Positions 676-23,793 of a stretch of 27,343 bases of DNA are shown in pieces. Every line of letters begins with the position of its first letter. Positions within the stretch are counted from its first letter, which is position 1. The stretch comes from a virus. Its lineage: Duplodnaviria > Heunggongvirae > Uroviricota > Caudoviricetes. The notes below the pieces were generated by a model. The model did no database searches. It had not been told where the DNA came from and was given only the letters and a program-made list of their open reading frames with translations. Where the stretch lies: the IMG/VR virus record IMGVR_UViG_2734482779_000006, positions 1 through 27,343 of that record, one strand, 5' to 3'. The position numbers were made by a program, and so were the translations under genes.

Positions 676-684
676 GGTGGGAAT

Positions 685-3854: not shown

Positions 3855-3876
3855 CACTGTAAGCCAAGGACGGCAT

Positions 3877-4371: not shown

Positions 4372-4435
4372 ACCAACCTCCTTAGTTTTGTGCAGGATAC
4401 CAGATGATAATGTGTAGTTGGAGTAGCGCGGTTGT

Positions 4436-4526
4436 AATGCAAGCATTTTGTTTTGGTTTTATGCTTGCTTGTATGTGTGTACAGTGTATATAATGCAAGC
4501 ATATATCACAACAAGGTGCTTGCATT
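4436..4526. promoter_or_regulatory. divergent promoter/operator region with four copies of the palindromic motif TGCAAGCA/TGCTTGCA
   Basis: Motif at 4438-4445, 4462-4468, 4494-4501 and 4517-4524; sigma70-like -35 TTGCTT (4465-4470) and -10 TATAAT (4489-4494) overlap copies 2 and 3; copy 4 overlaps the RBS AAGGTG of the 4527 gene. Confidence 0.5.
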
Positions 4527-5519
4527 ATGACAGAAAAGAAAAGTAGTGAAGGGAAAGCTAAGGGCGGGATCGCTCGCGCAAAGTCGCTGACTAAAGAGCA
4601 GCGTTCTGAAATAGCAAAGAAAGCAGCGGCTGCAAGATGGAAGGATAAACCATTAATTGCCACGCATAAGGGATCGTTCCAGCATGAATTCGGGATTGAT
4701 GTTGAGTGCTATGTGTTAAATGATGATAACAAAACTGCCGTTATTAGCCAGAGAGGCATGGGAGAAGCGATTGGTCTTGGCGAAGGTGGCAGCAGGTTGC
4801 CAAAGTTTATTCAGGGGAAAACTATTTCTCAGTATATTGGGCATGAATTAAGGGCAAAACTTGAAAATCCTCTTATTTTTCAATACAAACAGGCGGGCAC
4901 GAACACTCCAGCTAATCCTGTAATACATGGCTACGATGTAACAATATTAATTGATTTATGTCGAGCAATCTCTAATGCTAAAGCTGAAGGTAAGTTGCTT
5001 TCCAGTCAGGAAGGGATTGCTAAGCAAGCCAGAATCATTATTGATGCATCAGCCAAGGCGGGCATTCAGGGGCTTGTTTATGCTTTGGCAGGGTATGACA
5101 GAACAAAAGAAGAGGTAATTCAAGCATATAAGCGATATGTTGCTGAAGAGGCTCGTGAGTATGAAAGAGAGTTCACCCCTGAACTTTATGAGCATTGGTA
5201 TCGTTTGTATGGTATAGACAAACCAGTTAGAGGGCGACCATGGGCGTTTAAATATCTTACGATAGATCACATTTATTACCCATTAGCCAGAAGTGAAGGA
5301 AAGGTATTTAATTTAGCAAAAACTTCAAAAGAAGAGAAAGGCAGCAAAAACGATAAAATACACCAGTTTTTATCAGAGGTTGGAGTTAAGGCTCTTAGAA
5401 CCCAAATAGGTAAGGTTACTGGTATTGCAATGGTTTCTGATACTCGAGAAGAGTATGAGAAATACATAGATGAAAAGGTTATTGGACAAAGAACCATAGA
5501 CTTAAAAGATAAAGAATAA
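4527..5519 (+). CDS. hypothetical phage accessory protein with a basic K/A/R-rich N-terminal segment
   Basis: 330-aa ORF with good RBS and a downstream intrinsic terminator; N-terminus KGGIARAKSLTKEQRSEIAKKAAAARW suggests nucleic-acid binding; located between sieA-like and mnt. Confidence 0.6.
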   Translation: MTEKKSSEGKAKGGIARAKSLTKEQRSEIAKKAAAARWKDKPLIATHKGSFQHEFGIDVECYVLNDDNKTAVISQRGMGEAIGLGEGGSRLPKFIQGKTISQYIGHELRAKLENPLIFQYKQAGTNTPANPVIHGYDVTILIDLCRAISNAKAEGKLLSSQEGIAKQARIIIDASAKAGIQGLVYALAGYDRTKEEVIQAYKRYVAEEAREYEREFTPELYEHWYRLYGIDKPVRGRPWAFKYLTIDHIYYPLARSEGKVFNLAKTSKEEKGSKNDKIHQFLSEVGVKALRTQIGKVTGIAMVSDTREEYEKYIDEKVIGQRTIDLKDKE

Positions 5520-5520
5520 G

Positions 5521-5548
5521 AAAAACCCACCGTCAGGTGGGTTTTTTG
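5521..5548. terminator. bidirectional intrinsic terminator
   Basis: Stem ACCCACC/GGTGGGT with loop GTCA, flanked by an A-run upstream and a T-run downstream; lies between convergent genes ending at 5519 and 5533. Confidence 0.6.
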
Positions 5549-5784
5549 TTTTCTTGCATGTTCCTCAGCGTCTCAAGCAGCGCCTCTTTGAATTTGTCAG
5601 CTTCTTGCTGAGCAAATGACTCAACTGACTTTGGCGACCTATCTTCATCAATCGCGGCCTGCAAAATCATGACGATCTCGGAGTTAACAGAGCGACCATT
5701 TTTTGATGCTCTGACAGCAAGAGCCTCACGTAAAGATTCAGGGATTCTTACCGTAGTTGGAGAAATTGACACACCCTTTGCCAT
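5533..5784 (-). CDS. mnt: Mnt-like ribbon-helix-helix repressor
   Basis: 83 aa, the same length as P22 Mnt; conserved RHH core (RIPESLREALAVRASKNGRSVNSEIV against P22 FRMPMEVREKLKFRAEANGRSMNSELL); divergent from arc as in P22 immI. Confidence 0.8.
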   Translation of the reverse strand: MAKGVSISPTTVRIPESLREALAVRASKNGRSVNSEIVMILQAAIDEDRSPKSVESFAQQEADKFKEALLETLRNMQENKKPT

Positions 5785-5898
5785 ATCACACCTTTGGTAT
5801 TCAATTTGATATCAAAGTGTATGCAAAAAAATTTTGACTAGATATACTCACTTTGCTATCTTTTGTATTCGAAAAGAGTTGTTTGTGTGGAGGGTAAC
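5785..5898. promoter_or_regulatory. divergent mnt/arc promoter-operator region
   Basis: Perfect 12-bp palindrome TTTGATATCAAA at 5805-5816 next to the mnt start; -35 TTGACT at 5834-5839 with candidate -10 TATCTT at 5857-5862 facing arc. Confidence 0.45.
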
Positions 5899-6051
5899 AT
5901 GGAGAAAGAAATAAGTAAGATTTTGGTAAGGATGCCGCAGTCGTTAAAGGATGCTATCGGTAGCAGGGCAAAGGAAGAGTGCAGGTCGTTTAACTCAGAG
6001 GTTATCAAGCGCCTGATAGACAGCCTGAAGAGAGAGGGGGTGGCGATATGA
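5899..6051 (+). CDS. arc: Arc-like ribbon-helix-helix repressor
   Basis: 50 aa from ATG 5899 (GGAGGG RBS); RMPQSLKDAIGSRAKEECRSFNSEVIKRLIDSLKREG aligns with P22 Arc RWPREVLDLVRKVAEENGRSVNSEIYQRVMESFKKEG. Confidence 0.75.
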   Translation: MEKEISKILVRMPQSLKDAIGSRAKEECRSFNSEVIKRLIDSLKREGVAI

Positions 6052-6230
6052 ATAAAGAAGATGGCTTTAAGTGCTCCTTCTGCGGAAAGCCTCAGCATGA
6101 ATGTGCAATGTTGATTCGCGCTAAAGCAGAGATATTTATCTGTAGTGGTTGTGTATCTCTTTGCGTTGAAGCGATGGGGAAAGAGTTAAATTCTAGAAAA
6201 ACAATGTTAGATGTGAACATAAAACAGTGA
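6048..6230 (+). CDS. small zinc-ribbon protein resembling the ClpX N-terminal zinc-binding domain
   Basis: 60 aa; CSFCGKPQHE...IFICSGCVSLC matches the ClpX motif CSFCGKSQHE...YICDECVDLC (C4 zinc site); start ATG overlaps the arc stop (ATGA at 6048-6051). Confidence 0.6.
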   Translation: MNKEDGFKCSFCGKPQHECAMLIRAKAEIFICSGCVSLCVEAMGKELNSRKTMLDVNIKQ

Positions 6231-6292
6231 AGCCCCAACTGCGGTAACAGTCAGGGCTTCGGTTGTCGGTAAATCCGTGGAGAAAAACCAAC

Positions 6293-7195
6293 ATGAATAG
6301 TATAGCAATTTTAGAAGCAGTAAACACCTCTTACGTACCTTTCAATGGTCAGCAGATTATCACCGCCATGGCTGCCGGAGTTGCATATGTTGCGATGAAG
6401 CCAATCGTTGAAAACCTCGGAATGAGCTGGGGTACTCAGCAACAAAAACTTATGAAACAACTAGATAAGTTCAACTGTATTCATATGAATATGGTTGCTG
6501 CTGATGGAAAGCTTCGTAAGTTACTCTGCCTTCCTTTGAAGAAGTTAAATGGGTGGCTGTTCAGCATTAACCCTGAGAAAGTTCGTGCTGACATCCGCGA
6601 TAAACTTATTCAGTACCAGGAAGAATGCTTTACTGTGCTGCATGACTACTGGACGAAGGGAAAGGCAGAAAATGCACGTAAGAAAACATCTGTTGATGAC
6701 AGGACTCCGCTTCGTGATGCTGTAAATATGCTAGTCAGCAAAAAGCATCTAATGTACCCAGAAGCTTATGCAATGATTCATCAGCGTTTCAATGTGGAAA
6801 GTATTGAAGAGCTTGATGCATCTCAGATACCGCAAGCCGTAGAGTACATCCACAGGGTAGTGCTTGAAGGTGAGTTCATTGGCAAACAAGAGAAGAAGAC
6901 CAACGAGCTTTCTGCAAAAGAAGCAAACAGTCTTGTATGGTTATGGGATTATGCCAACCGCTCACAGGCATTATTCCGCGAACTGTATCCGGCATTAAAA
7001 CAAATTCAATCGAACTATTCCGGCAGATGCTACGACTACGGTCATGAATTCTCGTATGTTCTCGGAATGGCGAGAGACGTTTTAATAAACCACACACGAG
7101 ATGTTGATATTAATGAGCCAGACGGACCAACGAATCTTTCCGCATGGATGAGACTTAAGAATAAAGAATTGCCTCCTTCAGTACATAACTACTGA
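6293..7195 (+). CDS. ant: Ant antirepressor
   Basis: N-terminus [22 protein letters not shown] matches the P22 Ant N-terminus as recalled; the true start is ATG 6293 rather than the TTG at 6263; followed by an intrinsic terminator. Confidence 0.85.
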
Positions 7196-7214
7196 CAGAT
7201 AACCAACGCAACGA

Positions 7215-7238
7215 CCCAGCTTCGGCTGGGTTTTTTTA
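7215..7238 (+). terminator. rho-independent terminator after ant
   Basis: Hairpin CCCAGC-TTCG-GCTGGG followed by TTTTTTT. Confidence 0.7.
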
Positions 7239-7305
7239 TGCCCAAAATTCACCGTAGCTACGCTGCGGCGATTCCTTGTATCTGGAGCAAATTAAATGAC
7301 AGACA

Positions 7306-7794
7306 TTATCTAAAACAAGCAAACTCGCCATGATATTTTTCCCTGAATGCAATAGACATCAATTCGGCCAGCTCAATATCATCGGTATACCCAAGGCAAA
7401 TAGACTTACCTTTTAGTTTGAACATAACTTTATATGTGTTTTTCCCTTTAAGAAGATGAACTCCTTTTATACCTGTATTGGATGATGAAACGCTGTTGGT
7501 TTTATTCTGACCTCTGGTTACTTCTCTTAGGTTTGAAATTCTATTGTCATTTTTAACCCCGTTAATATGGTCAATTAACCCTTTAGGCCAGCATCCTTTC
7601 ATATAAAACCAAGCAAGTCGGTGGCAAAGATACGATTTTCCATTAATCCGTATTGATAAGTAGTCGGCCTGTGAGTTCGTCTTAAATCCAGCAACCTTTC
7701 CGATACTGGAGCTACCAGAAGCTATCTTCCAAGTGAAGACGCCTGTTTCTGGGTTGTAGTTGAGTGAAGAGGTTAATTCTTTATGAGTAATCAT
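7306..7794 (-). CDS. HNH homing-type endonuclease (HNH_3/AP2-like)
   Basis: Motifs CHRLAW...GLIDHINGVKNDNRISNLR typical of phage HNH endonucleases; ATG at 7794 has better RBS spacing (AAGGA plus 6 nt) than the ATG at 7800. Confidence 0.75.
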   Translation of the reverse strand: MITHKELTSSLNYNPETGVFTWKIASGSSSIGKVAGFKTNSQADYLSIRINGKSYLCHRLAWFYMKGCWPKGLIDHINGVKNDNRISNLREVTRGQNKTNSVSSSNTGIKGVHLLKGKNTYKVMFKLKGKSICLGYTDDIELAELMSIAFREKYHGEFACFR

Positions 7795-7820
7795 ATTCAT
7801 TCCTTAAATAGAGATTCACT

Positions 7821-9953
7821 ATGTCAAATATTGTGCCAAATGTTATAATTTCAATGCCAAGTCAACTATTTACGTTAGCCAGAAAATTCCAAGCCGCAAG
7901 CAATGGCAAGATATTCATTGGTAAGATAGATTCCGATCCTACGCTCCCACAGAATCAAGTGCAGGTTTATGTGGAGAATGAAGACGGTTCTCACGTTCCT
8001 GTTTCGCAACCAATCATCATTAACGCTGCTGGTTATCCTGTATATAACGGACAGATTGCCAAATTCGTTACCGTGCAAGGCCATTCTATGGCTGTTTATG
8101 ATGCGTATGGTGCACAGCAGTTTTACTACCCAAACATTCTGAAATATAACCCTGACCAATTAGAGTTGAGATTAATTGGACCGGATGGTTTTAAATACAT
8201 AGGGAGATGCAAAAATATTAATGATTTACGTCTAATAGAACCAACAATTGAAAGTCAATTAATAAATGTTATTGAGCATAGTGATGGTGTTGGTATCGGT
8301 GGCGGTTTTTTTGAGTATGATTCAACAGATAATACTTCAGAAGATGATGATGGAATGATAATTGTCACGCCTGGTGGAAAGCGTTGGAAAAGGATATGCA
8401 ATAAAGTGTATGCTGATTATTACGGAATTGTTCCAGATGGAGTAACGGATTATCATGATAAATTGAACAAAGCACTGCAAGCGGCAAAAATGGCAACGGT
8501 GAAAGAGCTTATTCTTTCTGAAGGTACTTACGGGATTAACTCTGCACTGAAAGTACCATCTCACGTTAGATTGCGTGGGGTGGGGAAATTTAAGACCGTT
8601 ATTCTAGCACTACCAACAATGCCGATAATTGAAAACTGTATTCAGAACGAGCTTTATGAATACAGGGTATTCAGGACAAACTACGATACTTCTATCCACA
8701 TAGAAGACTTATGTGTAGATGCTAACAATCGAGCAAGAAATCCGTCAGAAACATGGATGGATGCCACACAGGGGACTACTATTTTATTTTCTACTGTTAG
8801 CCACAGTTCCATCAAAAACGTTTACTGTAAGCGTGGTTTGCAGCATGGTATAGATATTTGTGCCGGGTATTATTTCGATGATGGAAATATTGATAATAAT
8901 GCAGTTGGCGGTAGCTATGACATTGTTGTTGAAGACACTTTTGTTCAAAACAGTCAACTTGACGATCTCATTACAACGCATAATAGCAGTGATATTGTAA
9001 TTAACCGCTGCCGAGTATGGAACGATGACCCATCTCAAGTATGGAATGATAACCAACACGGAATTGAAATTGATGAAGGAAGTTATAACGTCACAGTAAT
9101 GGATTGTTATGCTGAAAATGTTATCACTGGGTTTCAACAAAAAGGTCACTCCACTACAATGCCTGCTAGAAGTGTCCGATTCATTCGTTGTTATGCAAAA
9201 GATTGTGTTTACAGTTTCCAAATTGAACATCGAAACTCACAAACAATACCTTCTGGGCAACATCAACAAGCGCGTAATTCAGTGATTGAGGATTGTACGT
9301 CTGATAACGCAAATAATATTAAATATCAGGCTCTTCACGCTCGCGCGCTTCTTGTTTTAGGTTTTTTTGGTGTTTATGTGCGAAATCTGAGAGTTATAGG
9401 AGGGTCAGGAAATATATATTTAACTGGTGGTGCTAAATATATAAATATCGATGGTGTTCAGTGGACTGGAGGGTATGATGGAGCATCAAGCACCACACAG
9501 GAAGGGTTGATACATATAGAAACTAACGCAGCAGTTGATGATTATTGCATTCGTGATTTTATATGTGAAGATACGGTTACCGTGCCACTTATAAGAGACC
9601 TTACTGACACCACTGTTCAGCGAGAAATATCAAATGTTCGTGGGTATGGCGGGGATAATTCAATCCCAATGATCGCTATTGCGCCGCAGTCTGGTGATAA
9701 TATATCTAATATATCTAATGCGGGTACGTGGGCCTGCGCCATTAGAGATATGGCTAGAGAGGTAGGACAAGGTGATTACGCTCAAAGTGTATCCTTCCAG
9801 AATGGTTTCATTTTTATTTCAGGTAATGGCACCCCAAATGGGGTTATATCTGGCAAACCTGGTGCCGTGTATGTTAACACGGCGAGTGGATTTCAGTATC
9901 TTTGCACGGCTATAGGCAAAAATAACTGGGTTCCAATTACAACCGGAGTTTGA
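7821..9953 (+). CDS. tailspike protein with P22-type N-terminal head-binding domain
   Basis: First ~110 aa ([49 protein letters not shown]...[15 protein letters not shown]...LKYNPDQ) closely parallel the P22 gp9 N-terminus; the remainder is a long divergent receptor-binding region; 710 aa. Confidence 0.9.
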
Positions 9954-10012
9954 TGGTTAAAAATATCACACGCAAAGCTTTGCATCGGTTTGCAAGGTTT
10001 TGCGCCAATTCC

Positions 10013-11170
10013 CTATGATACATTCCCATCAAGCCAGTCCGCCCACCATTGCATCATTTCTCTGCGCTTATCCAGATACTGAGCATGGTTGTAAATCCCG
10101 CGTACAGATCCGCCGTTGGCATGTGCCAGTTGCACTTCAATAGCATCAGCAGGCCATTCGTGCTCGTTCATAATTGTGCTGAATTCATGCCTGAATCCGT
10201 GACCGCTTTCCAGACCTTCATAGCCGATTTGTTTGATCACAAGCAATACCGCGTTCTCGCAGATTGGCTTCTTCTTATCGTTGCGACCGGCAAAAACAAA
10301 CTCTGATACTGGTTTAGTGATTGAGCTTAGCGTAGTGAGAAGTTCAATCACCTGGTCTGACATAGGAACCACATGAATTTTGCGTCCTTTCATCACACTG
10401 GCGTCGATGGTGATAATCCTGTTTTCAAAATCGACGTTCTTCCATTGCATGGAACGAAGCTCTTTAGTTCTTAGGGCTGTATAGCGTAAAACCTTGGTGG
10501 CAATGAGCGATACGATACTTCCTGAAAATGTTGCCAGTGCTTTGTTGAATGCCGGGATCTGGTCTGCAGGAAGAAACGGGAAGTTCTTCTTGCGGTATCC
10601 CTTCATGGCGTCAGCAAGGTCAGGTGCCGGGTTATATTTAGCCCTTCCGGTGACAATAGCGTAACGGAAAACCTCGCCGCATCTTCTGCGTGCTTTGTTG
10701 GCTCGCTCCATTGCCCCGCGATCTTCAAATCTGCGGATTACTTCCAACAGTTGCATCGGCTCAATATCCTGAATTTCAAGGCCGCCGATGATGGGTAAAA
10801 TGTCGTCATCAAACATTTTTGCAAGTTCATTTGCATAGCCTACTGACCAGACTTGCTTCTTGTGCTCGTACCATTCCTTGTAAATGGCGCTAAAGGAGTT
10901 GTTGTTAGACGAAGCCTTTTTCGCCTTTACCGGATCGATGCCAACCGAGATGTCTTTCCTCGCGGTCCATGCTTTATCCCTTGCCTCCTGCAAAGTCATA
11001 AGCGGATATTTTCCGACGGTCAGGATTTTCTCCTTACCGTCAATCTTGTAGCGAAGCTGCCATACCTTTTTCCCGGATACAGGGACATAAAGGTACAGTC
11101 CATTACCATCGAGAAGGCGGTATGGTTTTTCTTTCGGCTTTGCTGCTTCAATCTGCTTAACGGTGAGCAT
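10013..11170 (-). CDS. intS: IntS-type tyrosine integrase (P4-like, argW-specific)
   Basis: 385 aa from MLTVKQIEAAKPKEKPYRLLDGNGLYLYV (integrase N-terminal arm-binding type); catalytic motifs GHGFRHEFST and LAHANGGSVRGIYNHAQY; the 16-bp argW-derived att core lies about 160 bp upstream. Confidence 0.9.
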   Translation of the reverse strand: MLTVKQIEAAKPKEKPYRLLDGNGLYLYVPVSGKKVWQLRYKIDGKEKILTVGKYPLMTLQEARDKAWTARKDISVGIDPVKAKKASSNNNSFSAIYKEWYEHKKQVWSVGYANELAKMFDDDILPIIGGLEIQDIEPMQLLEVIRRFEDRGAMERANKARRRCGEVFRYAIVTGRAKYNPAPDLADAMKGYRKKNFPFLPADQIPAFNKALATFSGSIVSLIATKVLRYTALRTKELRSMQWKNVDFENRIITIDASVMKGRKIHVVPMSDQVIELLTTLSSITKPVSEFVFAGRNDKKKPICENAVLLVIKQIGYEGLESGHGFRHEFSTIMNEHEWPADAIEVQLAHANGGSVRGIYNHAQYLDKRREMMQWWADWLDGNVS

Positions 11171-11330
11171 GGGTAAAAATCCGGTGGGTAAAATTATTTT
11201 ATCCACTTTTTACCCGTCATGTAGTGCGGCTGTCAACGATCTGACGCGAACCATGACGAACTGTAAATCTACGGAAGGCTTGATATTCAGGGGATTTTGC
11301 GGACTGGTACGGATGGGAGCGAACTGATAA

Positions 11331-11346
11331 ATGGTGTCCCCTGCAG
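11331..11346. repeat. att core direct repeat ATGGTGTCCCCTGCAG, identical to the argW 3' end at 23971-23986
   Basis: Exact 16-bp match to the tRNA acceptor/T-arm 3' end; positioned upstream of the intS start in the same way that argW sits upstream of the second integrase. Confidence 0.65.
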
Positions 11347-11568
11347 AAATCATCTTAATTATTATCGTATTGATTTATATGTTATTTATTTTGGCTGTCT
11401 TGTTTTTGTACCCGTTTTGTACCCGTTTTATTCTATTCCCAATTTAAACTTCGATTCTGAAAAGGTGAGTGGGGGAGGTTATCATTTTATGTATCATTGT
11501 TGTAGACACAGAATAATTACTCGCCTATCCTCACTGTATACACACCATAGATACAGGAGTTAACCCAC

Positions 11569-11817
11569 ATGCGCACACAGGTTGTATTGCAAAAATGGGG
11601 TAACAGCATTGCCCTTCGACTAACGGGAAACCTTAAAACCGTTCCGGGTTTTTCAGTGGGTGATATCGTCAACGTTGAAATTAGTGAAAAAGGGCTTTTT
11701 GTAGAAAAGCCTGCACGCCGTCGCCTGAGTGAAGCCGAACTACTCGCCGGGATAACGCCAGTTACAGCGCACGCTGACGAAATTGCCACCCCATTCAATG
11801 AGGAGGTTGATTACTGA
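11569..11817 (+). CDS. MazE/ChpS-family antitoxin (AbrB/SpoVT fold)
   Basis: 82 aa; KWGNSIALRL motif and acidic C-terminus typical of MazE/ChpBI; stop overlaps the toxin start. Confidence 0.8.
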   Translation: MRTQVVLQKWGNSIALRLTGNLKTVPGFSVGDIVNVEISEKGLFVEKPARRRLSEAELLAGITPVTAHADEIATPFNEEVDY

Positions 11818-12161
11818 TGTTTGTACCTAAGCGTGGTGATATTTGCTGGCTGGATTTTGAGCCGCAGAAAGGAAAAGAGATCGGAAAGTATCGCCCGGCA
11901 CTCATACTGTCCCATGAGCAATATAACCGACTCACCGGGTTTGTCATATGCTGCCCCATAAGTACGAGCATACGAAATGCTCCCACAGAAGTTCCGGTAA
12001 CAAATCTGGACGCCCCCAGCGTGGTAGCAACCACACTCATTCAAACCCTTGACTGGCGTCAGCGGAAAGCGCGCTTAATCACAGAGGCAGAAGATGGGGT
12101 ATTTAATGATGTGCTTGAAAGAGTCATTACTCTGATTGGTGGAGAGCATCTGCTTAAGTAA
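11817..12161 (+). CDS. MazF/PemK-family endoribonuclease toxin
   Basis: 114 aa; PKRGDICWLDFEPQKGKEIGKYRPALIL matches the MazF/ChpBK N-terminal signature; start overlaps the antitoxin stop by 1 nt. Confidence 0.85.
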   Translation: MFVPKRGDICWLDFEPQKGKEIGKYRPALILSHEQYNRLTGFVICCPISTSIRNAPTEVPVTNLDAPSVVATTLIQTLDWRQRKARLITEAEDGVFNDVLERVITLIGGEHLLK

Positions 12162-12204: not shown

Positions 12205-13476
12205 CTATTCTTTCCAGTCAATCCCATCCAGTAAGCACCCTGCCTCATATTGCCCCACCACCCAGTCAAGGTTACAGGACTCATAGAACGAGAGGCGATT
12301 ATACTGAGGCTCGTTTTTTACCAGGCCACGAACGGAACCACGCTGCCAGTACAGACACAGATTGGCAAGAGGTGTGATCAATACAGCATTGTCCGGGAAA
12401 AATGGAACGGTTACAGCCGGGAGATTCCCCAGAACGGGATTTTTAATGATTTCCTCGTTAAGCAAAATTTCCTGATTCATCTGCGATGGATCAAGACGGT
12501 TTATCAAAGGCCATTGTTTACGGACCAGCGTATTGTGACTGCATACGGCCACAATGCCTTCCTGCCACTGTTCATCAATCATGGATTGCCAGGCATCCAG
12601 AACGAGCGCATCTATCGTATGGTGTGTACCGCGTGTATTACTTTTCGGTGATGAAACAGAAAGGCCGCTGATAACCCTTCCCGCCGCTTCATTTCGAAAC
12701 TTCTGCAACCAGCCCACGCCACAATCGTCACGCCCCGGATATGTTTTAGGGTCAGATTTGGCGGCATAATGTGTGCCGTTAAAACCAATCTGAATTAAAT
12801 CCAGCCATTTCCGGCGTTCAAAAGCGGCCCGCGCACTTCCTTCAAGGCCGTTTGCGGATGCGTGAGCATCGGCATTGTCGTAGTTCAACGCAAAATCAAA
12901 ATTAACCTGCTCGCAGCGGTAGCCCCTTGAAACCAGTGAATGCGCCTGTAGTGGCGAACGGCGCTCGTGAGGTGGCGATGTACGTGCCAACGACCCCGAA
13001 GCGTCTACCAGCACAACCCGACCTGATATATCCGTAACAGGCACGGGAGTTATTTCAGCAAGGAAATTTGCCTGCCATCCACTGGCAAGCGTTGCACTCT
13101 GGCGAGGAACGGGTTCAACTTCTGACGAATAGCGCGCAGTGTCACCGGAAAAGTGCAAATCCTTCGGATGCTTTCCGGTTATCGACTCGATAGCGCAATT
13201 GAAAACCATCTGAGACTGTTGATTTCGTTGTGATACAACAGAATCAGCAGTGCAATTATAACGCTCAATGCCGTCGTTATTACCCCCACCGCTTGCAGTA
13301 TGCAGGGTGTGAAGCTCAAGCTCACGCTCCAGTTTTTGATATTCATTGTCCAGCGCGCGACGCGTCTCATCGCTTATGCTTGCTGTGTTTGCTTTCAGGC
13401 GATTCCGGGACATTAATCCCCTGAGTCGGCTCACTATATCAGCGCCGTGCAAATGTGGAGTATTCAGACCGCCCAT
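12205..13476 (-). CDS. candidate P2-family major capsid protein (gpN-like)
   Basis: 423 aa from the ATG overlapping the upstream stop (TAATG at 13474-13478); segments NFDF...GFNG...GWLQKFRNEA...GNLPAVTVPFFPDNAVLITPLANL...NYxSxNLDWVVGQYEAGCL resemble my recollection of P2-family capsid proteins; sits in a late-type operon downstream of an Ogr/Delta gene; needs confirmation. Confidence 0.45.
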   Translation of the reverse strand: MGGLNTPHLHGADIVSRLRGLMSRNRLKANTASISDETRRALDNEYQKLERELELHTLHTASGGGNNDGIERYNCTADSVVSQRNQQSQMVFNCAIESITGKHPKDLHFSGDTARYSSEVEPVPRQSATLASGWQANFLAEITPVPVTDISGRVVLVDASGSLARTSPPHERRSPLQAHSLVSRGYRCEQVNFDFALNYDNADAHASANGLEGSARAAFERRKWLDLIQIGFNGTHYAAKSDPKTYPGRDDCGVGWLQKFRNEAAGRVISGLSVSSPKSNTRGTHHTIDALVLDAWQSMIDEQWQEGIVAVCSHNTLVRKQWPLINRLDPSQMNQEILLNEEIIKNPVLGNLPAVTVPFFPDNAVLITPLANLCLYWQRGSVRGLVKNEPQYNRLSFYESCNLDWVVGQYEAGCLLDGIDWKE

Positions 13477-14186
13477 TACTGCCACCCCCGGCAGAGTTCT
13501 CTGCCCTCCGCAAGGTCGCGCATTTTTTCTGGATTCTGTCGCGCCGCGCTCCATTGTACAGGTGAAGGGGCGCTCCTGATTGCGCAGCTTACTGAATCCG
13601 GGAGTTTCTCCGGGCAATAACGCAGCGGGCTGGAGGTGTCGCTTTCGGTATCGTTAATCCGGCCGCGAATCATCCCGACACTTTCAGCAGTATCTGCCGC
13701 TTTCAGTGTTTCGCATATTTTCTTTTCTGCGTTATACAGCGGCTGGCCAAGCAGCTCACATAAACCACGAATCAATAACAGAACAGGGGTCAGCTCGTTA
13801 ATCAGTTCGGGAAGTGCTTTTGCAAATATCTCTGCCCGCAACTTATTATCAATACTTTCGTAAGCACAACCAGCCTCTGCCGCGTTATAACGACACTCCA
13901 GTAGCCTGATGCGCGCCTCATCATGCAGCACCCGCAGACGCTCAAGATTTTCTCGCGCCACACCCGCCTGAATGGATAATTTCGCGGAGGCTTCCGTTTT
14001 TACTCCCAGCGCAGACAGGATTGAGTTCTGCCAGTCACGATCGAGAGACTCCAGTTCCCCTTTCGTCTGTTCGATAGTCGCTTCCAGATTGGTGACTAAT
14101 GATTCCTGTTCACTGAGCTTTGCCCTGGCTGTATCAAACTGTGCTTTACATACCTGATGTTCGGCGCTTGCCTGAGTTATATCCAT
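13476..14186 (-). CDS. coiled-coil protein, candidate capsid scaffolding or size-determination protein (gpO/Sid-like)
   Basis: 236 aa, strongly helical and heptad-like N-terminal half; translationally coupled to the capsid-like gene; size close to P4 Sid (244 aa as recalled). Confidence 0.4.
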   Translation of the reverse strand: MDITQASAEHQVCKAQFDTARAKLSEQESLVTNLEATIEQTKGELESLDRDWQNSILSALGVKTEASAKLSIQAGVARENLERLRVLHDEARIRLLECRYNAAEAGCAYESIDNKLRAEIFAKALPELINELTPVLLLIRGLCELLGQPLYNAEKKICETLKAADTAESVGMIRGRINDTESDTSSPLRYCPEKLPDSVSCAIRSAPSPVQWSAARQNPEKMRDLAEGRELCRGWQ

Positions 14187-14817: not shown

Positions 14818-15387
14818 ATCACGCTCCTCTTACTGGTGTGAAATTTAACCTATTATATCTTCCGCCGCCTCCTCTGGCTGTATCAAATAAATCCGCAACG
14901 GTCGCTGCGTATTACGCGCAGGCACACCGTTCCCATACTCACTCCTCACATTCCCCGTATCAGTTCTCTCTTGCAGTAAGAACGGCTCTGGCTGGCGATA
15001 AAACTAACCCGGTCGGGCATTCCCACAGTCTTTAGCGAAAGATGTAATTTACCCCCTGAAACGCGGGCTGTTCCCCCGTCACCTGCGCGCGAAAAACTCA
15101 CCGTTTTTTGTGCACGCACGAAATCGCCCTCCGGGCGCGCCCGTACTGGGCCGGATGGGCAAAAAGTTACTCTAAAAAATTGTGCAAATTTGTGCACTTT
15201 TGTGCAAACGGGAAGAGGCTGTTTAAAGGCGGTTTTTTGCGTTTTTTTGGTAGCTGTAACGTGATGCGTATTACGTTTTTATTCGCTTCTATGTGAAGAG
15301 ATAACAATGATTTCATTCAATTTATTGTGTTGCACTTTTGTTGCTGGTCTTGCCAGTGTTTTTTTGCCTCTACCTCAAAATCCGGTA

Positions 15388-15690
15388 GGGGGTGCGCAAA
15401 CGGGTTACAAAGGTTACAGCCCCCTAAAACACATATTAACACCATGATTTTAAATGAAATTGTTTGTAACCTTTTTGAGGTTACAGAAGGTTACACGAGG
15501 TTACACCAATTAAAAACATATTAATTATCAATTAGTTATAAGCGTGCTCTGTAACCATGCGTAACCTCTGCATAAAGGTTACATGTAACCCTGTTGTAAC
15601 CCATTTTGTAACCTTTTAAAGGTGTTATAATATATTGATATATAATATATTTTTCTGTTTGTAACCTTTGTAACCCGTTTGCGCACCCCC
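15388..15690. repeat. 30-bp perfect inverted repeat (15388-15417 and 15661-15690) flanking an array of about 14 GGTTAC/GTAACC hexamer iterons
   Basis: Left arm GGGGGTGCGCAAACGGGTTACAAAGGTTAC is the exact reverse complement of the right arm; hexamers between the arms often fall at 10-11 bp phasing; AT-rich core TATAATATATTGATATATAATATA at about 15626-15650. Confidence 0.7.
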
Positions 15691-15940
15691 CCCCGGACTT
15701 TAGCGCGCGCCTTTAAAATGTTAATTAAACTAACTTACTATGTGTCACTCTCATTAACTTTCTGTGACTAAAATGTGTCTCGTCACTGTGGAACTCTTTC
15801 TGATAATCAGGGGGCAAAAAATTGATGGCGGCACCACTGCAATATGGCCACCATTGCATTGCTGTTACCGTTGGTTCTGGCCAACAAAAAAGGCCAGTGG
15901 AAAACTGACCTCTTTTGCTGTGAATGTAGTGTTCTGCGGG

Positions 15941-16944: not shown

Positions 16945-19614
16945 TTAGCGTCCCTCCTTGTAGCTGAATATCCAGCATTTCAATACTTCATTTTCTTTAG
17001 CCTGGGCTACCCCCCTTCCGGTGTTCGCCTGTTTGACTACCTCGCTACGGACTGACTTGTACCCAATCAGTGGCCGAGAACGACCAGTCTTGAGAAGCTT
17101 TATCATTTCGGGATTGGTTTGGATCTTCACATGGTGAATAGCGGCAACCTGCTCCAGTTGCGGGATACTAACGGCAAGCCCATTCTGGGATCCCTTGCCA
17201 AAGTGGTTTACGCCGTATGCTGTTATGCCGTCCAGATAGTCGAACGCCTCCCAGAACGCTATTACTTCCGGCAAGTCATCCGTTACCGCTTTAGCTTGTT
17301 CCGCTGCCATTCGTTCCAGTTCCTGGCATGTGGCATTAAGCCATTCATCCGGGATATCAATAACGCATTTCAGCGCCCTGACCAGCGCAATAAGTTGCGC
17401 GTGATTTTTGGCAATACGCTGATGACGAATATTTTCGCAACCATAAAGGCGGGTTGTTTCAGGATCAGATAGTGCCATAAACGTCTCCATAATCGCCCGT
17501 TCCTGACTTACTGCCCGATGGATAAAACCTGATACCTGCTCAACGGGGTAAAGCTCCAGCCGTTTTGCTGCCAATCGGCTATCTGGTGAGTGGCGTTTTT
17601 TATCGGTGTATACGCGTACCAGACGCTCAATAATTGCCGATGAGGCGTTTACCGTGGCATTCTGCGCAATCACGATAGCCCCCTTAAAAACGGGGTCATA
17701 TGTGGCGTTATCATTGGTTTTAACGCCACGCACCCCAATACCGCCACCGTTATAGAGGCTTTTCAGGTTATCGAAATCAAACGCCCCCCTTTTTTGTGCG
17801 TTATCGCCCCTGTCCGCTTCAATCAGAACAACAGGTAATCCAGCAACCTGTCCAAAAGTTCGCTTCCAGCCTGATTCTGAGCCTTTGGTTGGATCAACAC
17901 CTTCATAGTTGTCACGGCCACACAAACGCCAGCAAAAATCAATTAACGTTGTTTTACCCGTACCTGGCTCTCCGGTAATCTCAAGAAAGGGGTAAGATGT
18001 GTTTTTCTGCCTGATTTGTTCGCTGAACAACGAACCCAACCAGAAAGCCAGGGTAATAATTCCCTTTTCACCAAACGCCAGCCAGAGATCTTCCACCCAG
18101 GATGTTGTAAATTCATCCGGTTTTTTATAGTTAATCTGCAATATTGGTTTTTTATTCAATGGTTTTGCGTTTACGCCATCAATTTCAAAATAATCCTCTT
18201 CATTGATTTCGTAGGTTTTACCATTACAAACCGCGATATCATTAAACAACCACGCACCAATCTCTTTGTTGTATCCGATAAAATCCTGACCGATAACACT
18301 TTTTATTGCGGGAAGGTCATTTTTTATTAATGCGTCAAGGTGCGCAGTTGTTCCGGTATAAATACCGCCTTTTGCTACGTGCAACAGACGTTTTTTAAAT
18401 TCAGATGCGGATGTTAATTGCCCTGATGTAAAGGTGTTTTTCACCGTAGCACCATCCGGGAATGTAATGCGGAAGTAATACCATGCTTCATCCGTATCAT
18501 TGTTTCGAATGTAATAAAGCGGCACTGGGTTACAGTTTGCGATTTCTTTTACAGCGCCGGATTCCTTGAGTGCAATTTTGCGCGCTTCATCTTCGTCAAC
18601 ATTTCGCTCATTAATGACACGCTCAACAGCCTTCATATGGCGCTCAATATCCAGCTTGAACCAGAACACACGGTTATCAAAGGGAAAATGAAATTCCTTT
18701 CGCTCACGAAAGGAAAACATTATTAGTGCCTTATCTCTCGGAGATTTCGCCAGCAATAAATCACCGTAATAACGGTATCTTTTCACATCATGGCCACGTA
18801 GCTTTCCGGCGATGTGTAAATCATTCCAGTCGCGTTTATTGTTGTTTTCACCCGGTAACGCCGCTGCCGTTCTCCAGCCGCCTTCGGCGCTGCGTTCTGC
18901 ATGTTTTTTTGCGTAACGCTCACCCGCACGCCCGTTATCCAGCGCCCACACAATAACCGGACGGGGATTATCTCCGCACAGCTTCGCCAGTTCTTCCAGC
19001 GCCTTATCAGGGTAGTTCACGGCAGACATGACAGAAACGGCCGCAATGCCATTCTGGTTAAGGCTGATGGCATCAAAGACACCCTCACAAATCCAGATTT
19101 CTTTGGCCTTGCTTAAATCTGCTCCCGGATAAGCCCACCACAGCCCCTTGTAGCTGCCGGAAAAATTCGCCTTGCGCGCGAAGCGTTCCGGTCGGTCTAT
19201 GATGCGCTCCCACCACACACCGTCAGCCAGCGTAAAACGCACGGTAGCAGCTTGTTCGCCGCTTTCCTTGTCCTGGTATCGCTCCTGAGTAAATGCGCCC
19301 TTCAGTGGCTCCACAGCAATATTGCGCGCCTCCTGAAGATAAGCTGCCGCCGCTGCGTATGGATCGTCTTTCGTGCTGATATAGCGATCTGACCATGATG
19401 AAAACACATCCGGGTAAAGTTCTTTGGTCAGCAGGTCTGTACCGCATTTATTTTCACGCCCGCAGTGTACGATGTACGGCCTTTCAAGGCTGGTAAACAG
19501 CTCCTTCTTTCCACATTGCGGACAAACACCATACCGAAGGTAGTTATTTTCTTCTTTGAAGTTGTAATCACGGATAAGACGGTTAATAATCTCTTTTCTG
19601 GTATCAGGCTTCAT
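16945..19614 (-). CDS. P4 alpha-like primase-helicase
   Basis: 889 aa; N-terminal zinc-binding CPQCGKK...HCGRENKC; Walker A GEPGTGKTT in the C-terminal helicase region; location and size typical of satellite-phage alpha proteins. Confidence 0.9.
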   Translation of the reverse strand: MKPDTRKEIINRLIRDYNFKEENNYLRYGVCPQCGKKELFTSLERPYIVHCGRENKCGTDLLTKELYPDVFSSWSDRYISTKDDPYAAAAAYLQEARNIAVEPLKGAFTQERYQDKESGEQAATVRFTLADGVWWERIIDRPERFARKANFSGSYKGLWWAYPGADLSKAKEIWICEGVFDAISLNQNGIAAVSVMSAVNYPDKALEELAKLCGDNPRPVIVWALDNGRAGERYAKKHAERSAEGGWRTAAALPGENNNKRDWNDLHIAGKLRGHDVKRYRYYGDLLLAKSPRDKALIMFSFRERKEFHFPFDNRVFWFKLDIERHMKAVERVINERNVDEDEARKIALKESGAVKEIANCNPVPLYYIRNNDTDEAWYYFRITFPDGATVKNTFTSGQLTSASEFKKRLLHVAKGGIYTGTTAHLDALIKNDLPAIKSVIGQDFIGYNKEIGAWLFNDIAVCNGKTYEINEEDYFEIDGVNAKPLNKKPILQINYKKPDEFTTSWVEDLWLAFGEKGIITLAFWLGSLFSEQIRQKNTSYPFLEITGEPGTGKTTLIDFCWRLCGRDNYEGVDPTKGSESGWKRTFGQVAGLPVVLIEADRGDNAQKRGAFDFDNLKSLYNGGGIGVRGVKTNDNATYDPVFKGAIVIAQNATVNASSAIIERLVRVYTDKKRHSPDSRLAAKRLELYPVEQVSGFIHRAVSQERAIMETFMALSDPETTRLYGCENIRHQRIAKNHAQLIALVRALKCVIDIPDEWLNATCQELERMAAEQAKAVTDDLPEVIAFWEAFDYLDGITAYGVNHFGKGSQNGLAVSIPQLEQVAAIHHVKIQTNPEMIKLLKTGRSRPLIGYKSVRSEVVKQANTGRGVAQAKENEVLKCWIFSYKEGR

Positions 19615-19660
19615 ATATAAATCCTCTCCCCCCCCCTGTAAAAATACAGGGGGTTATTCT
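19615..19660 (-). other. stem-loop plus G9 tract in the primase 5' leader
   Basis: On the minus strand CCCCCTGTA-TTTTT-ACAGGGGG hairpin followed by GGGGGGGGGAGAGGA and the ATG; no U-tract, so not a canonical terminator. Confidence 0.4.
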
Positions 19661-20439: not shown

Positions 20440-20622
20440 TTACCCCTCCATGATTTTTACTGCGCATTTGTGGGTTAATCGCCCCTGTTTGTCATTGCGG
20501 GAATATGCCATACGACAGGCATCACGCCATGCATCGTCATAAGTCGGGTATTCCCGGGCATGAATCATCTGGCGAACGTCGCCGTTCTGGCAGTTAATCA
20601 GGGTGATAAGGAGCTTAAACAT
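20440..20622 (-). CDS. hypothetical small protein
   Basis: 60 aa from ATG 20622 with GGGAGG RBS 7 nt upstream (MFKLLITLINCQNGDV...). Confidence 0.4.
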   Translation of the reverse strand: MFKLLITLINCQNGDVRQMIHAREYPTYDDAWRDACRMAYSRNDKQGRLTHKCAVKIMEG

Positions 20623-20788
20623 GGCACGCCTCCCGGACACGAATACGGGCAACAAAGACCAGACGGGATGCCGGAAGCAGGGCGCGCGCTTCGCGCTCAC
20701 TGGCAGCGGTAACGGTATGAAGGCGGATATTTTTACCGTGGCACTGCATAAAGCGCCAGATAAAATCAGGGCGTGTTGATATAGCCAT
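20615..20788 (-). CDS. hypothetical small protein
   Basis: 57 aa from ATG 20788 (GGGAG RBS); the longer 175-aa version upstream is low-complexity and unlikely to be coding. Confidence 0.3.
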   Translation of the reverse strand: MAISTRPDFIWRFMQCHGKNIRLHTVTAASEREARALLPASRLVFVARIRVREACHV

Positions 20789-21204
20789 ATGAAAGGCTCC
20801 CAATTCAAGTTTAAGAAGCCTCACTACAACGCTGTCAAACGTGGTGGCGAGACGTAACAGGGTTGACAGACTGGCAAATTGGGAAACCAGCGAGCATAAA
20901 GCTCCCCCATTACGCCCCGCCATAATACGGGAAAGGGTGGTATTACGGGCACAAAAAAACCGCATTACGGAATACAAGCGGCTACCCGCCAATTTATTCA
21001 GGCTGTCAAACCCGGCACCTGTTTTATGAGGTGCGGGCAAACGATACGCCATGACAAAAAAGCGAGTCAAGCAATATTGCAAATTATTTTGGCGCGATTG
21101 CGCTGAGTGATTGATTTTTAAGAGTAAAAAAGCCATAATCATTTCTGCCTATTATTTCTTATTGTTGGTTTCAGGTGCACTAAATGCACATCCTTGACTG
21201 GTTG

Positions 21205-21236
21205 GCTCGCTAGCTTTAGCGAGCTTCTTTTTTTTG
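21205..21236 (+). terminator. plus-strand intrinsic terminator inside the satellite leader region
   Basis: GCTCGCTA-GCTT-TAGCGAGC hairpin followed by TTCTTTTTTTTG; orientation is antisense to the satellite genes. Confidence 0.5.
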
Positions 21237-21697
21237 CTCTGCTGCCAGTACCCGGCCTCCTTCCCTCACATGTAGTAATGTGCCCGCTCCAGTCAGCTGG
21301 ATAATGCTGTATTCCCGGACATCCGGTTATGATGTTTAAAGCGTTTGTTTGTTTATGCCACGTGGAGAATATCCCCATGTCGCCATTACTTGTATTTATC
21401 ATAACAGTTTACCCAATCCGGTTAATGTAACCGGAATAACTCAATTTCATACACTGTAAATAAATGCTGATTTTGAACTTAGCTCCTTGGAATATATTTC
21501 TTACGTGTGATGTACAGGTGAAAATATCCCTCTGATAGTCCATTTTCTTTTATTGGGTCACATCTGTTTACTCCGGTTCCCTTAACAAGGGTAGAGCATC
21601 TTTTAAACCATGAATGCATCTTTGGTTAAGTGATGTTTCTTATTGAATGAAATGTTTAGGCGCATATCGCGCCATGCTGACTATAAAGTGAAAATAA

Positions 21698-21919
21698 TTA
21701 AGCCTGAAAACGTTGTTGTTTTCTTTCTTCTATCCAGTCGATAATTTCCTCTTCAACCCATGCAACCGCACGAGGGCCTATTTTTATTGGTTTGGGGAAT
21801 ATATCAGATTTTATATCTTCGTAAATTCGAGCTCTCGATCTCCCTGTGATTTCAATGACTCTGGGGAGTCTTATTAATTTTTGAATCCGCCTTTCGCTGG
21901 TCTGTGAGTATGCTGACAT
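21698..21919 (-). CDS. AlpA/Vis-family transcriptional regulator or excisionase
   Basis: IRLPRVIEITGRSRARIYEDIKSDIFPKPIKIGPRAVAWVEEEIIDWIEER follows the AlpA pattern RLPxVxxxTGxxRxTIY...FPxP...GxRxVxWxExEIxxW. Confidence 0.8.
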   Translation of the reverse strand: MSAYSQTSERRIQKLIRLPRVIEITGRSRARIYEDIKSDIFPKPIKIGPRAVAWVEEEIIDWIEERKQQRFQA

Positions 21920-22448
21920 ATTGGCCTCCTGTATATGCTGAACACTTTATGTTAGCTCACAGTGGGAGCATGTAAGATCTCGCGGTCGTCTGCGGGACGA
22001 GAAAAATCATAAACAACGAAAAGCGGATTTGTAAATCTGGTCGATTTTCAGACGGGGTTGACATGGACAGTTAGATTTGTTCCATGTGTGAAATATACAT
22101 TTTAGGACCACTTTAAGCCGCTTTAAACCGCCTGGAAGCGACAAAGAATAACAAGTTAGTGCCAGAAAGGTTTGCTGACTTACCCTTTCAGGCACCAGGA
22201 AAGCCCGTTCTGGGGGATGTAATGCTTGCGAACGCTGGAATAGTGGTTTCTGAAAACAAAAAAAGAATTGAAAATGTGATACATATCACAAAATGATATC
22301 GATAAAATAGTTTGATTTTTTTTGTTTTTATTAAAAGCACTGGTTAATTGTGAAAAATTAATTATAAATCAAATAGATATATCTGTTTTTTTAGGGTAAA
22401 AATCACTAGGTGCTTTTAGTGAGGTCTTATTCTATTGATTTTAAAAGA

Positions 22449-22482
22449 TAAAAAAATCGGCGTGTCCACATATTGTCCACGC
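22449..22482 (-). terminator. rho-independent terminator downstream of the satellite integrase
   Basis: On the minus strand GGCGTGGACA...TGTGGACACGCC hairpin followed by GATTTTTTT. Confidence 0.6.
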
Positions 22483-22530
22483 CTTGAGCTTAATTCAGCC
22501 GCTTGGGGTAGTTTAGTTTGTTGAGTTGAT

Positions 22531-23793
22531 TCAGTCTGTTTCGTTAGCCCATTTAAAATCATAGGGGGCAATATATGCCGTCTTGCAGGTGTCGAGATAA
22601 TCAGCCCACCATTGCAACATTCGGCGGCGTTCCTGCATATGTTCAGCTCTGTGAATGTATGCAGCCCGGACACTGCCTCTTTCCCTGTGACTCATCTGAA
22701 GCTCAACGGCTTCTCTTGTCCACCTGCCTGACTCTGTCAGCGCCGAACAGGCCATAGCTCTGAATCCGTGGCCACAAATATCTTTTTTTGTGTCGTATCC
22801 CATGTGGCGTAATGCCTTGTTAATGGTGTTTTCGCTCATTGGTTTTATCTGGTAATGGTCGCCGGGGAAAATAAACAATTCATCACCGGATATATTTCTT
22901 ATATCGTCAAGAAGCTGCATGGCCTGAGTGGGCAAAGGGATGGCGTGAGGGGTTCCCATTTTCGTTCCACGATATGAATATTTTACGCCTTCTATTTTTT
23001 CGCGTTCTGCTGGTATTACCCACATTGATTTATCAAAGTCAATTTCATTCCAACGAGCAAAACGCAATTCACTTGAGCGAATAAAAATTAATAAATTTAA
23101 TTTTAGTGCAAATTGCGTTAATAACCGTCCATTCATCTTGTGGTGGTAATCATTTATTTTGCCAAGTAATTCAGGTAATCGCTCAAGGGGAAGAGCGGGG
23201 CGATGTTTGGTTTTATTAGTTTCGATTGCACCGTTCAGTTCCTGCGCTGGATTGTATTTAATCATTCCATTCTGTACAGCGTAGCGCATAATGGCGTTCA
23301 TTCGCTGCTTGTTACGTGATGCTGTCTCAAGCACTCCTTTATCTTCCATTTTGCGTAAAGGAATCAGTAGATCCATGGTTGTGATCTCGTTAATTGGCCT
23401 TTTACCAAGAATGGGGAAGATGTGGTTTTCCAGGTCTTTTAAGACTTTTTGCGCGTGTAATTCGCTCCAGCCCTTTTTCCGGCTGTGCCATTCTCTGGCA
23501 ACGTCTTCAAAAAGCACTATTTGAGGTTTTGGTGTGTGCAGTGGGTCAATGCCTTTAGCCAGGCTCGCCAGATATTCATCACGAGCGTTCCTTGCCTGTG
23601 CAAGTGTTACGGCAGGATAAATGCCTAAAGCTCGGGTCGTTTCTTTACCGTTGATAACCTTGCGAAAGCGCCAGTATTTTGAGCCGTTGGGGTGAACATA
23701 GAGATACAGGCCTTTCCCGTCACGAAGTTTTTTAATTTTGTTGTTGTCCTTATCTGGTTTGGCGTTACGTACAGCTACATCAGTCAGTTTCAT
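22531..23793 (-). CDS. IntS-family tyrosine integrase of the P4-like satellite
   Basis: 420 aa from MKLTDVAVRNAKP (GGAGGA RBS); N-terminal arm-binding type; catalytic GHGFRAMACS and SVRAAYIHRAEH; C-terminal MLQWWADYLD parallels intS MMQWWADWLD; immediately downstream of argW. Confidence 0.9.
   Translation of the reverse strand: MKLTDVAVRNAKPDKDNNKIKKLRDGKGLYLYVHPNGSKYWRFRKVINGKETTRALGIYPAVTLAQARNARDEYLASLAKGIDPLHTPKPQIVLFEDVAREWHSRKKGWSELHAQKVLKDLENHIFPILGKRPINEITTMDLLIPLRKMEDKGVLETASRNKQRMNAIMRYAVQNGMIKYNPAQELNGAIETNKTKHRPALPLERLPELLGKINDYHHKMNGRLLTQFALKLNLLIFIRSSELRFARWNEIDFDKSMWVIPAEREKIEGVKYSYRGTKMGTPHAIPLPTQAMQLLDDIRNISGDELFIFPGDHYQIKPMSENTINKALRHMGYDTKKDICGHGFRAMACSALTESGRWTREAVELQMSHRERGSVRAAYIHRAEHMQERRRMLQWWADYLDTCKTAYIAPYDFKWANETD

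Follow-up and report, generated by a model that had tools for sequence, protein, structure and literature searches.

The region described here, positions 20789-21697 (909 nt) of a 27,343-nt stretch of viral DNA (IMG/VR record IMGVR_UViG_2734482779_000006; the whole stretch is called the window), lies between alpA and the small genes that precede a primase gene in an integrated satellite element. This part of the window was 99.9% identical to the chromosome of E. coli HCP5S3_I2, whose annotation covers the right part of the window only; HCP5S3_I2 lacks the left 11 kb. The satellite is inserted at tRNA-Arg and adjoins yfdC. Its - strand genes are arranged in the order int, alpA, the gap studied here, an Icd-like gene, four small open reading frames (ORFs) and a Toprim primase, after which come a second tyrosine recombinase, an Ogr/Delta zinc finger and a P2-family capsid homologue. 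Of the core set of P4-like satellites (int, alpA, delta, alpha, sid, psu and epsilon/ash), those recognised were int, alpA, the Ogr/Delta zinc finger and the Toprim primase; neither sid nor psu was recognised, and the element has a P2-family homologue of the capsid protein (PF05125, 243 bits) instead. Gene content and order point to a P2-type, P4-like satellite.

A covariance search against the P4 CI family, which the first-pass annotation of this DNA had suggested as a check, gave a full-length match to the C4 antisense RNA model on the - strand (Table 1). P4 itself, used as a control in the same kind of Rfam search, scored 74.9 bits for CI and 60.8 bits for the SeqA region on the same models, so the models represent the P4 immunity RNAs. 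The C4 fold consists of a closing stem and two hairpins, and compensatory changes were found in 10 of the 28 stem pairs among 11 homologues, including P1 and P4. Ahead of it in the transcript lies an IsrK/SeqA-like leader RNA, which has its own intrinsic terminator (a 6-bp stem and U7, 20983-20953, with the stem at 20983-20958 and the U7 at 20959-20953) and holds both upstream target sites. Transcription from the operon promoter is predicted to start 6-7 nt downstream of the -10 hexamer TATCGT, exactly where the IsrK model begins (position 1), and the promoter segment was invariant in the 13 type-1 variants (types are defined below), though it had partly been used as the search anchor. The first-pass annotation had taken the whole ~900 bp for a leader. 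This was correct for 246 of the 909 nt (21034-20789) but not for the rest, as the operon promoter lies within the region. Its suggestion that a P4-CI-like regulatory RNA is encoded here was borne out by the RF01695 match; however, the terminator and the hairpin from which it argued are found on the other strand, at a distance of about 280 nt, and belong to a separate unit.

The C4 RNA exposes two segments, the hairpin loop UCCCAAUUU and the 3' segment CUGUCAA, and each matches one upstream and one downstream site, which gives four sites of 7-8 nt. Such complementarity between the region and leader sequences, the lack of which the first-pass annotation had named as counting against a regulatory RNA, was therefore present. 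The analysis found 5 complementary 7-mers, compared with 0.75 in shuffled sequences, and 0.9% of the shuffles reached the observed count. The AAUUGGGA site contains the GGGAG Shine-Dalgarno sequence of the ATG at 20788, and the Icd-like ORF follows directly after this last target site, just outside the region. Loops and sites changed together between elements: CUUGAUUG occurred with CAAUCAAG in the related element L003, and CUGCUAA occurred with UUAGCAG.

Closely related satellites (L003, L014, L039, L040, L042 and L044) differed almost only in the C4 loop (20876-20884 in the window), the 3' segment and the matching sites. Three 3' segments were found (CUGUCAA, CUGCUAA and CUCUCAA), and loops and 3' segments were combined differently. 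Judged from the sequences, this pattern implies that swapping of short segments in the loops and 3' segments generates many immunity specificities. Tandem modules of a C4 RNA plus an Icd-like gene, two per element, were seen in L007 (3001-3600) and upstream of icd in L037, L038, L040 and L042.

In P1 (c4) and P4 (cI), an RNA processed from the leader pairs downstream, blocks the first ORF and causes termination or polarity. Most of what was found is a further case of this well-known immunity switch, for which family membership, structural covariation, complementarities and their co-variation between elements were all observed. The sigma-70 promoter at 21070-21041 would direct a 246-nt leader from about 21034, the first 80 nt of which would form the IsrK/SeqA-like RNA with its own terminator. 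Transcripts that read through this terminator would contain the C4/CI RNA (20927-20840), which would be cut out and accumulate. Its loop and 3' segment would pair with the downstream sites at 20805-20798 and 20838-20832, respectively, covering the ribosome-binding site of the Icd-like ORF and blocking its translation. Polarity or premature termination would in turn keep the primase (16945-19614) and the small genes silent, and the satellite would remain quiescent and immune. The processing of C4 and the termination outcome are the steps that we infer by analogy with P1 and P4.

On the + strand, the region contains a second unit, composed of a 32-nt promoter-like block, a body of about 58 nt and a terminator. 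The first-pass annotation had placed a strong + strand terminator at 21205-21236 and a small hairpin, GTGCA-CTAAA-TGCAC, at 21176-21190. Both were recovered, the terminator at 21204-21235 and the hairpin at 21175-21189, where it appeared in the minimum-free-energy fold as well as in the centroid fold. Under strict criteria (a stem of at least 8, at least 5 GC pairs and at least 7 T in 9), 4 terminator sites were called on the two strands of the 27-kb window, compared with 0.1 in Markov-shuffled control windows. The terminator at 21204-21235 is one-directional because the U-tract is absent on the - strand. Its earlier description as antisense to every satellite gene holds broadly but is slightly overstated, as the element has a few small + strand ORFs. 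This terminator is the end of a separate divergent unit, located 40 nt beyond the - strand promoter, and is not part of the C4 system.

Table 1. Features in and around the region between alpA and the Icd-like ORF (window coordinates)
Feature	Position	Strand	Evidence or remark
C4/CI-type antisense (immunity) RNA	20840-20927	-	RF01695, 70.5 bits (gathering 45), model 1-87 of 87, E = 4.5e-12
IsrK / P4-SeqA-like 5' leader RNA	20953-21034	-	RF01394, 52.3 bits (gathering 50)
Operon promoter TTGACT-18 nt-TATCGT	21041-21070	-	Promoter scan; predicted start ~21034
Upstream site UUGACAG	21009-21003	-	Complement of C4 3' segment CUGUCAA
Upstream site AAAUUGG	20995-20989	-	Complement of C4 hairpin loop
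Downstream site UUGACAG	20832-20838	-	Complement of C4 positions 59-65; direct repeat of upstream copy
Downstream site AAUUGGGA	20798-20805	-	8-nt Watson-Crick complement of C4 positions 44-51 (hairpin loop)
Icd-like ORF, 57 aa	20615-20788	-	NF033153 segment; PHROG 1426/1743 match; ATG 20788; GGGAG 8-10 nt upstream
Divergent promoter-like block	21108-21139	+	TTGATT 21111-21116, 17 nt, CATAAT 21134-21139; conservation
Predicted short RNA, ~89 nt	21146-21235	+	U-rich 5' part; hairpin 21175-21189; linker AUCCUUGACUGGUU 21190-21203; terminator 21204-21235
One-directional intrinsic terminator	21204-21235	+	Stem GGCTCGCTA/TAGCGAGCT 21204-21225, loop GCTT, tail TCTTTTTTTT to 21235
47-nt segment	21236-21282		Travels with type-1 unit into two different right-hand contexts
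Lineage-specific spacer, no detectable feature	21283-21636		In 20 of 5426 complete E. coli genomes, never annotated
alpA 3' flank, hairpin GGCGC-N5-GCGCC (21660-21674)	21637-21697	-	Conserved downstream of alpA in L006 and L045 (79-82%)
alpA (AlpA/Vis family)	21698-21919	-	PF05930, 61.8 bits; upstream neighbour of the gap
int	22531-23793	-	Satellite gene adjoining alpA
Toprim primase	16945-19614	-	End of controlled operon

Three types of the divergent unit were compared: type 1, that of the window; type 2, in L006, L014, L015 and L017; and type 3, in L043/L044, which was found independently by way of the Icd protein and has a C4 RNA only 74% identical. The 32-nt block was kept across the three types, with unrelated bodies downstream. 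In all 17 distinct variants that carry the block, a + strand terminator was found 76-95 nt after the -10 hexamer, and a - strand terminator was found there in none of the 17. Among the type-1 sequences, 9% of the columns were variable in the block, 27% in the spacer between the two promoters and 40% in the 47 nt after the terminator. The linker AUCCUUGACUGGUU had no variable column (0/14), hairpin and linker together had one (1/29), and the linker was retained in type 1b despite a replaced middle. In type 2, the -35 and -10 hexamers were kept although much of the 17-nt spacer differed. Recombination joints were located right at the predicted + strand start and at 21282. In types 2 and 3, the 3' end of the predicted RNA lies directly against the stop codon of a capsid-like gene in convergent orientation, which itself lacks a terminator.

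Among 5426 complete E. coli genomes, type 1 was present in 66, type 2 in 9 and type 3 in 0, and the unit was single-copy and chromosomal. The strains HCP5S3_I2, ETEC1732 and TOE17 are among the carriers. When one genome per species was scanned, the promoter region turned up in one other Escherichia only, and the remaining 8 hits were attributed to chance. The plasmid search gave no hits, phage records showed no match beyond the c4 part, and the literature search returned no paper describing a divergent RNA beside c4 or cI in satellites.

The remainder of the region separates this unit from alpA. The 47-nt segment after the terminator ends with the palindrome CACAT-GTAGTA-ATGTG (21267-21282), at which homology with other elements stops. 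L005 and L024 have CACGT...ACGTG at this palindrome, a symmetric double change, and it may be a protein-binding or recombination site. The lineage-specific spacer at 21283-21636 occupies a place that is taken by cargo genes in relatives, namely a hypothetical protein and a P2-type capsid homologue, or a helix-turn-helix regulator and a hypothetical protein. No ORF in this spacer matched a Pfam, NCBIfam or PHROGs family, and its fold was not significant on either strand (z-scores -1.8 and -1.3). That the spacer is a remnant of the relatives' cargo genes was rejected, as tblastx and blastn detected no similarity except in the alpA 3' flank. A replication origin in the gap was likewise rejected: 21237-21697 contained no iterons, and a dense (A/G)GGTTACA cluster was found at 15377-15701 instead. 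The hairpin at 21660-21674 in the alpA flank is a weak terminator at best. The motif GGATATT(T/C)T..C occurred in three copies, one inside the Icd-like ORF (20725-20743, +) and two in the spacer, at 21356-21374 and 21517-21529 (reverse).

In the relatives, a capsid-type gene pair is located between alpA and the C4 promoter (L006 3397-5335; L044 2669-4629). The L006 pair is a RefSeq-annotated P2-family capsid gene with a hypothetical gene, and the L044 pair consists of two unannotated ORFs of similar size.

We read the region as an immunity-control region with three parts, a C4 switch on the - strand, a divergent cis-acting short RNA on the + strand and a lineage-specific spacer, and we give this reading a probability of roughly 60%. 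According to it, the conserved divergent promoter (21111-21139) would drive a transcript of about 89 nt, which terminates at 21204-21235. No - strand terminator was called in 21036-21697, between alpA and the immunity promoter, and the short RNA would therefore be complementary to any read-through from the alpA side. In lambda, OOP RNA is antisense to the 3' end of cII mRNA. The short RNA may act in cis in a comparable way, as an OOP-like antisense RNA or as a convergent-transcription insulator that faces alpA read-through and uncouples the alpA and cargo transcripts from the immunity/replication operon. Its terminator would keep it from running antisense into alpA and int. A cis-acting antisense RNA or insulator explains why the body can be exchanged but promoter and terminator persist. 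A small protein encoded by the unit was ruled out, as its frames of 9-13 codons were not common to the types and the length of the T-run varied from 6 to 9. The idea that the RNA mimics or sponges the C4 target sites was also rejected, since its UUGACUG was unchanged when C4 specificity changed.

Several points weigh against this three-part reading. The calls of the promoter scan are consensus matches whose number equals the shuffle expectation, so it is conservation that argues for the + strand promoter, and the 32-nt block could be a protein-binding site instead. A purely cis-antisense role does not require the invariant linker, which is more in keeping with a seed that acts in trans or with an Hfq site. 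The unit is rare (about 75 of 5426 E. coli genomes, ~1.4%) and is missing in P4, and therefore it is not essential to C4/CI-type immunity. On the - strand, the c4-a1b1 model (RF03163) scored 36.9 bits, under its gathering score of 46.7, with the target sites themselves present. Finally, the long reading frame over the C4 RNA was open in every variant examined (165-217 codons), for which constraint by RNA structure is our explanation, though not a proven one.

As the cis role explains the invariance of the linker less well, we kept a trans-acting small RNA (sRNA) as the main rival. In this case, the + strand unit would encode a probably Hfq-dependent sRNA, with the invariant anti-Shine-Dalgarno-like linker AUCCUUGACUGG as its seed and an exchangeable body that sets the target, an mRNA of the host, the helper phage or a competitor. 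The predicted RNA has the classic anatomy of an sRNA, with its own promoter, a U-rich 5' region, a small hairpin and an intrinsic terminator with a long U tail, and hairpin and linker are its most conserved part. Each of the three bodies also contains a pyrimidine-rich UCUU/CCUU motif, and UUGUUGGU is common to types 1 and 2. However, crude duplex scans against the satellite and phage P2 performed no better than a shuffled sRNA, complements of the linker occurred at chance frequency in these target scans, and no consistent complement of the sRNA was found within the element. Nor did any Rfam family reach its threshold with the + strand unit, the best scores being 20.7 bits for mmgR/suhB (gathering 41), 20 for GcvB (42) and 19.2 for Trp leader (41). 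We consider a trans-acting sRNA unlikely.

It is also possible that there is no functional RNA, the terminator being a safety stop or a relic of cargo exchange and the 32-nt block an operator or architectural site for the - strand immunity promoter. The frequency of promoter-like matches, the replacement of the body by unrelated sequence and the two recombination joints are all consistent with this explanation, and a second + strand terminator-like hairpin at 19632-19653 suggests a general blocking of antisense transcription. However, if the unit were not transcribed, there would be no reason for three unrelated bodies to keep a strong terminator, equally oriented and equally far away, in all 17 variants, and the retention of the -35 and -10 hexamers in type 2 despite the divergence of the spacer is not accounted for either. 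We therefore regard the absence of a functional RNA as quite improbable.

The last alternative concerns the - strand, where RefSeq/PGAP annotates an 'Icd-like' coding sequence (CDS) of 173-175 aa, which corresponds to 20615-21142 in the window (175 aa) and has an equivalent in each of L001-L006. The Icd domain NF033153 scored 52.7 bits (cut-off 25) on residues 127-169 of the 175-aa frame only, and substitutions in the 5' extension were spread evenly over the codon positions (22/20/23, and 8/8/7 within C4; 22 variants). The RefSeq CDS is therefore over-extended: only its last 57 codons look coding, and the 57-aa Icd-like ORF is the true first gene of the operon. The open frame and a consistent PGAP call are in favour of a genuine 175-aa protein, but this is highly improbable, as homology is limited to the last 50 residues, the extension has no codon-position bias and corresponds precisely to the stretch of two Rfam RNAs plus a promoter, a good Shine-Dalgarno sequence and ATG at 20788 give the same layout as P1 icd, and the P4 entry carries a historical mis-annotation of the same kind ('cI, AA 1-137'). 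The view that 20789-21697 is non-coding, with its boundary at 20789, was thus upheld: alpA ends at 21698, the next credible - strand ORF begins at 20788, and ORFs within 21036-21697 gave no Pfam, NCBIfam or PHROGs match.

Beyond the window, the comparison of the types raises the idea that, in a small Escherichia family of P4-like satellites, a fixed divergent promoter beside the C4 promoter serves as a slot for exchangeable functional RNAs of 70-90 nt. We offer this tentatively and think it rather doubtful. As OOP-like antisense RNAs, they might control transcription that enters the immunity/replication operon from the alpA/capsid module; as trans-acting sRNAs, they might instead reach helper or host mRNAs through AUCCUUGACUGG.

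Other features of the window were recorded as well. Positions 1-11350 are the terminal part of a P22-like prophage, with ejection proteins, tailspike and intS; prophage and satellite share one tRNA-Arg locus as a tandem. This part contains a full-length sar RNA (RF00262, 88.4 bits) at 6226-6292 (-), opposite the start of the Ant antirepressor ORF at 6263-7195 (+). At the far end of the satellite, beside the prophage junction, a MazE/MazF-type toxin-antitoxin pair (toxin PF02452) was found at 11569-12161 (+), a position typical for satellite cargo or defence genes. The satellite-encoded P2-family major capsid homologue and the preceding ORF of 236 aa, whose function is unknown, occupy 12205-13476 (-) and 13476-14186 (-). 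Downstream of the primase and the second recombinase, the cluster at 15377-15701 contains at least 14 (A/G)GGTTACA/TGTAACC repeats in both orientations, a 42-nt inverted repeat (93% complementary) and an AT-rich centre. By comparison with the TGTTCACC repeats of P4 ori/crr, it is probably the replication origin of the satellite.

The second + strand terminator-like hairpin (19632-19653), CCCCCTGTAAAAATACAGGGGG followed by TTATTCTTTA, lies within the operon, and on the mRNA strand it is immediately 5' of the primase Shine-Dalgarno sequence (GGAGAGGA). It could be a block to antisense transcription, an mRNA stabiliser or a translational element. The gap of 610 nt between int and alpA (21920-22530) is very AT-rich (GC 23-31% around 22200-22500) and contains inverted repeats of A/T tracts. 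The best promoter-like match of the whole scan, TTTACA-18-TATGAT, was located upstream of alpA at 22035-22006.

Taken together, the sequence evidence points to a switch of a known kind with one modestly novel candidate RNA beside it. A systematic annotation error is corrected, in that the 175-aa RefSeq protein spans a promoter and two regulatory RNAs. The data also show a P2-dependent satellite in which a P1-type c4-icd switch precedes a P4-type primase operon, and loop/target pairs that diversify between near-identical elements, with the many specificities this implies. If it exists, the divergent mini-transcript would give satellite immunity a second level of control by RNA and offer a compact example of how sRNA modules are exchanged.

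The predicted + strand RNA can be compared with lambda OOP and P22 sar, which are RNAs of 70-90 nt with their own promoter and intrinsic terminator, directed against the end or the start of a convergent gene. The + strand unit has no sequence or Rfam relationship to OOP or sar, and its convergent partner in the window would be only untranslated alpA read-through.

The leader resembles the IsrK - STnc1160 - orf45 - anrP arrangement of Salmonella Gifsy-1, in which transcription has to pass the Rho-independent terminator of IsrK itself before it gets to the RNA and ORFs further downstream (PMC4825925). The same paper equates IsrK with P4 SeqA and STnc1160 with CI. The window leader matches the IsrK model, but with a score barely above gathering (52.3 versus 50), and the downstream genes differ. 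AlpA of Pseudomonas is known to bring about antitermination (PMC7969949, PMC9371919).

P4, whose immunity mechanism is also summarised there (PMC4825925), has the layout PLE - seqA - CI RNA - seqC - kil ... alpha. Like the window element, it is a P2-type satellite with a CI/C4 RNA and a SeqA/IsrK-like leader before the primase operon, the same geometry of promoter (PLE) and start, and an AlpA/Vis-family gene upstream in the same orientation. In P4, however, only about 35 nt separate the end of vis from PLE, and both the divergent unit and the spacer are missing. The window differs further from P4 in its Icd-like first ORF, in int adjoining alpA, in the P2-family capsid gene and in having no recognisable sid or psu. 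P4 was not detected by blastn, and the window module is closer in sequence to P1 immI (c4-icd).

In P1 and P7, immI has the layout P51 promoters - a1/b1 - c4 RNA - a2/b2 - icd - ant. The P1 c4 region belongs to the same RNA family and was 75.5% identical to window positions 20806-21015 over 210 nt. Both systems have sites on the two sides of the C4 RNA, the last of them some 10 nt ahead of an Icd-family ORF, and in both the RNA would be processed from the leader of the genes that it controls, as judged for the window by analogy. The window differs from P1 in that ant genes are absent, the operon ends in a primase as in P4, a C1 operator is not evident, and the two site types follow a different order along the transcript from that in the P1 annotation. 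At the equivalent place, P1 has a back-to-back divergent promoter, PsimA, which drives simABC, whereas the window has a terminated non-coding unit of about 89 nt.

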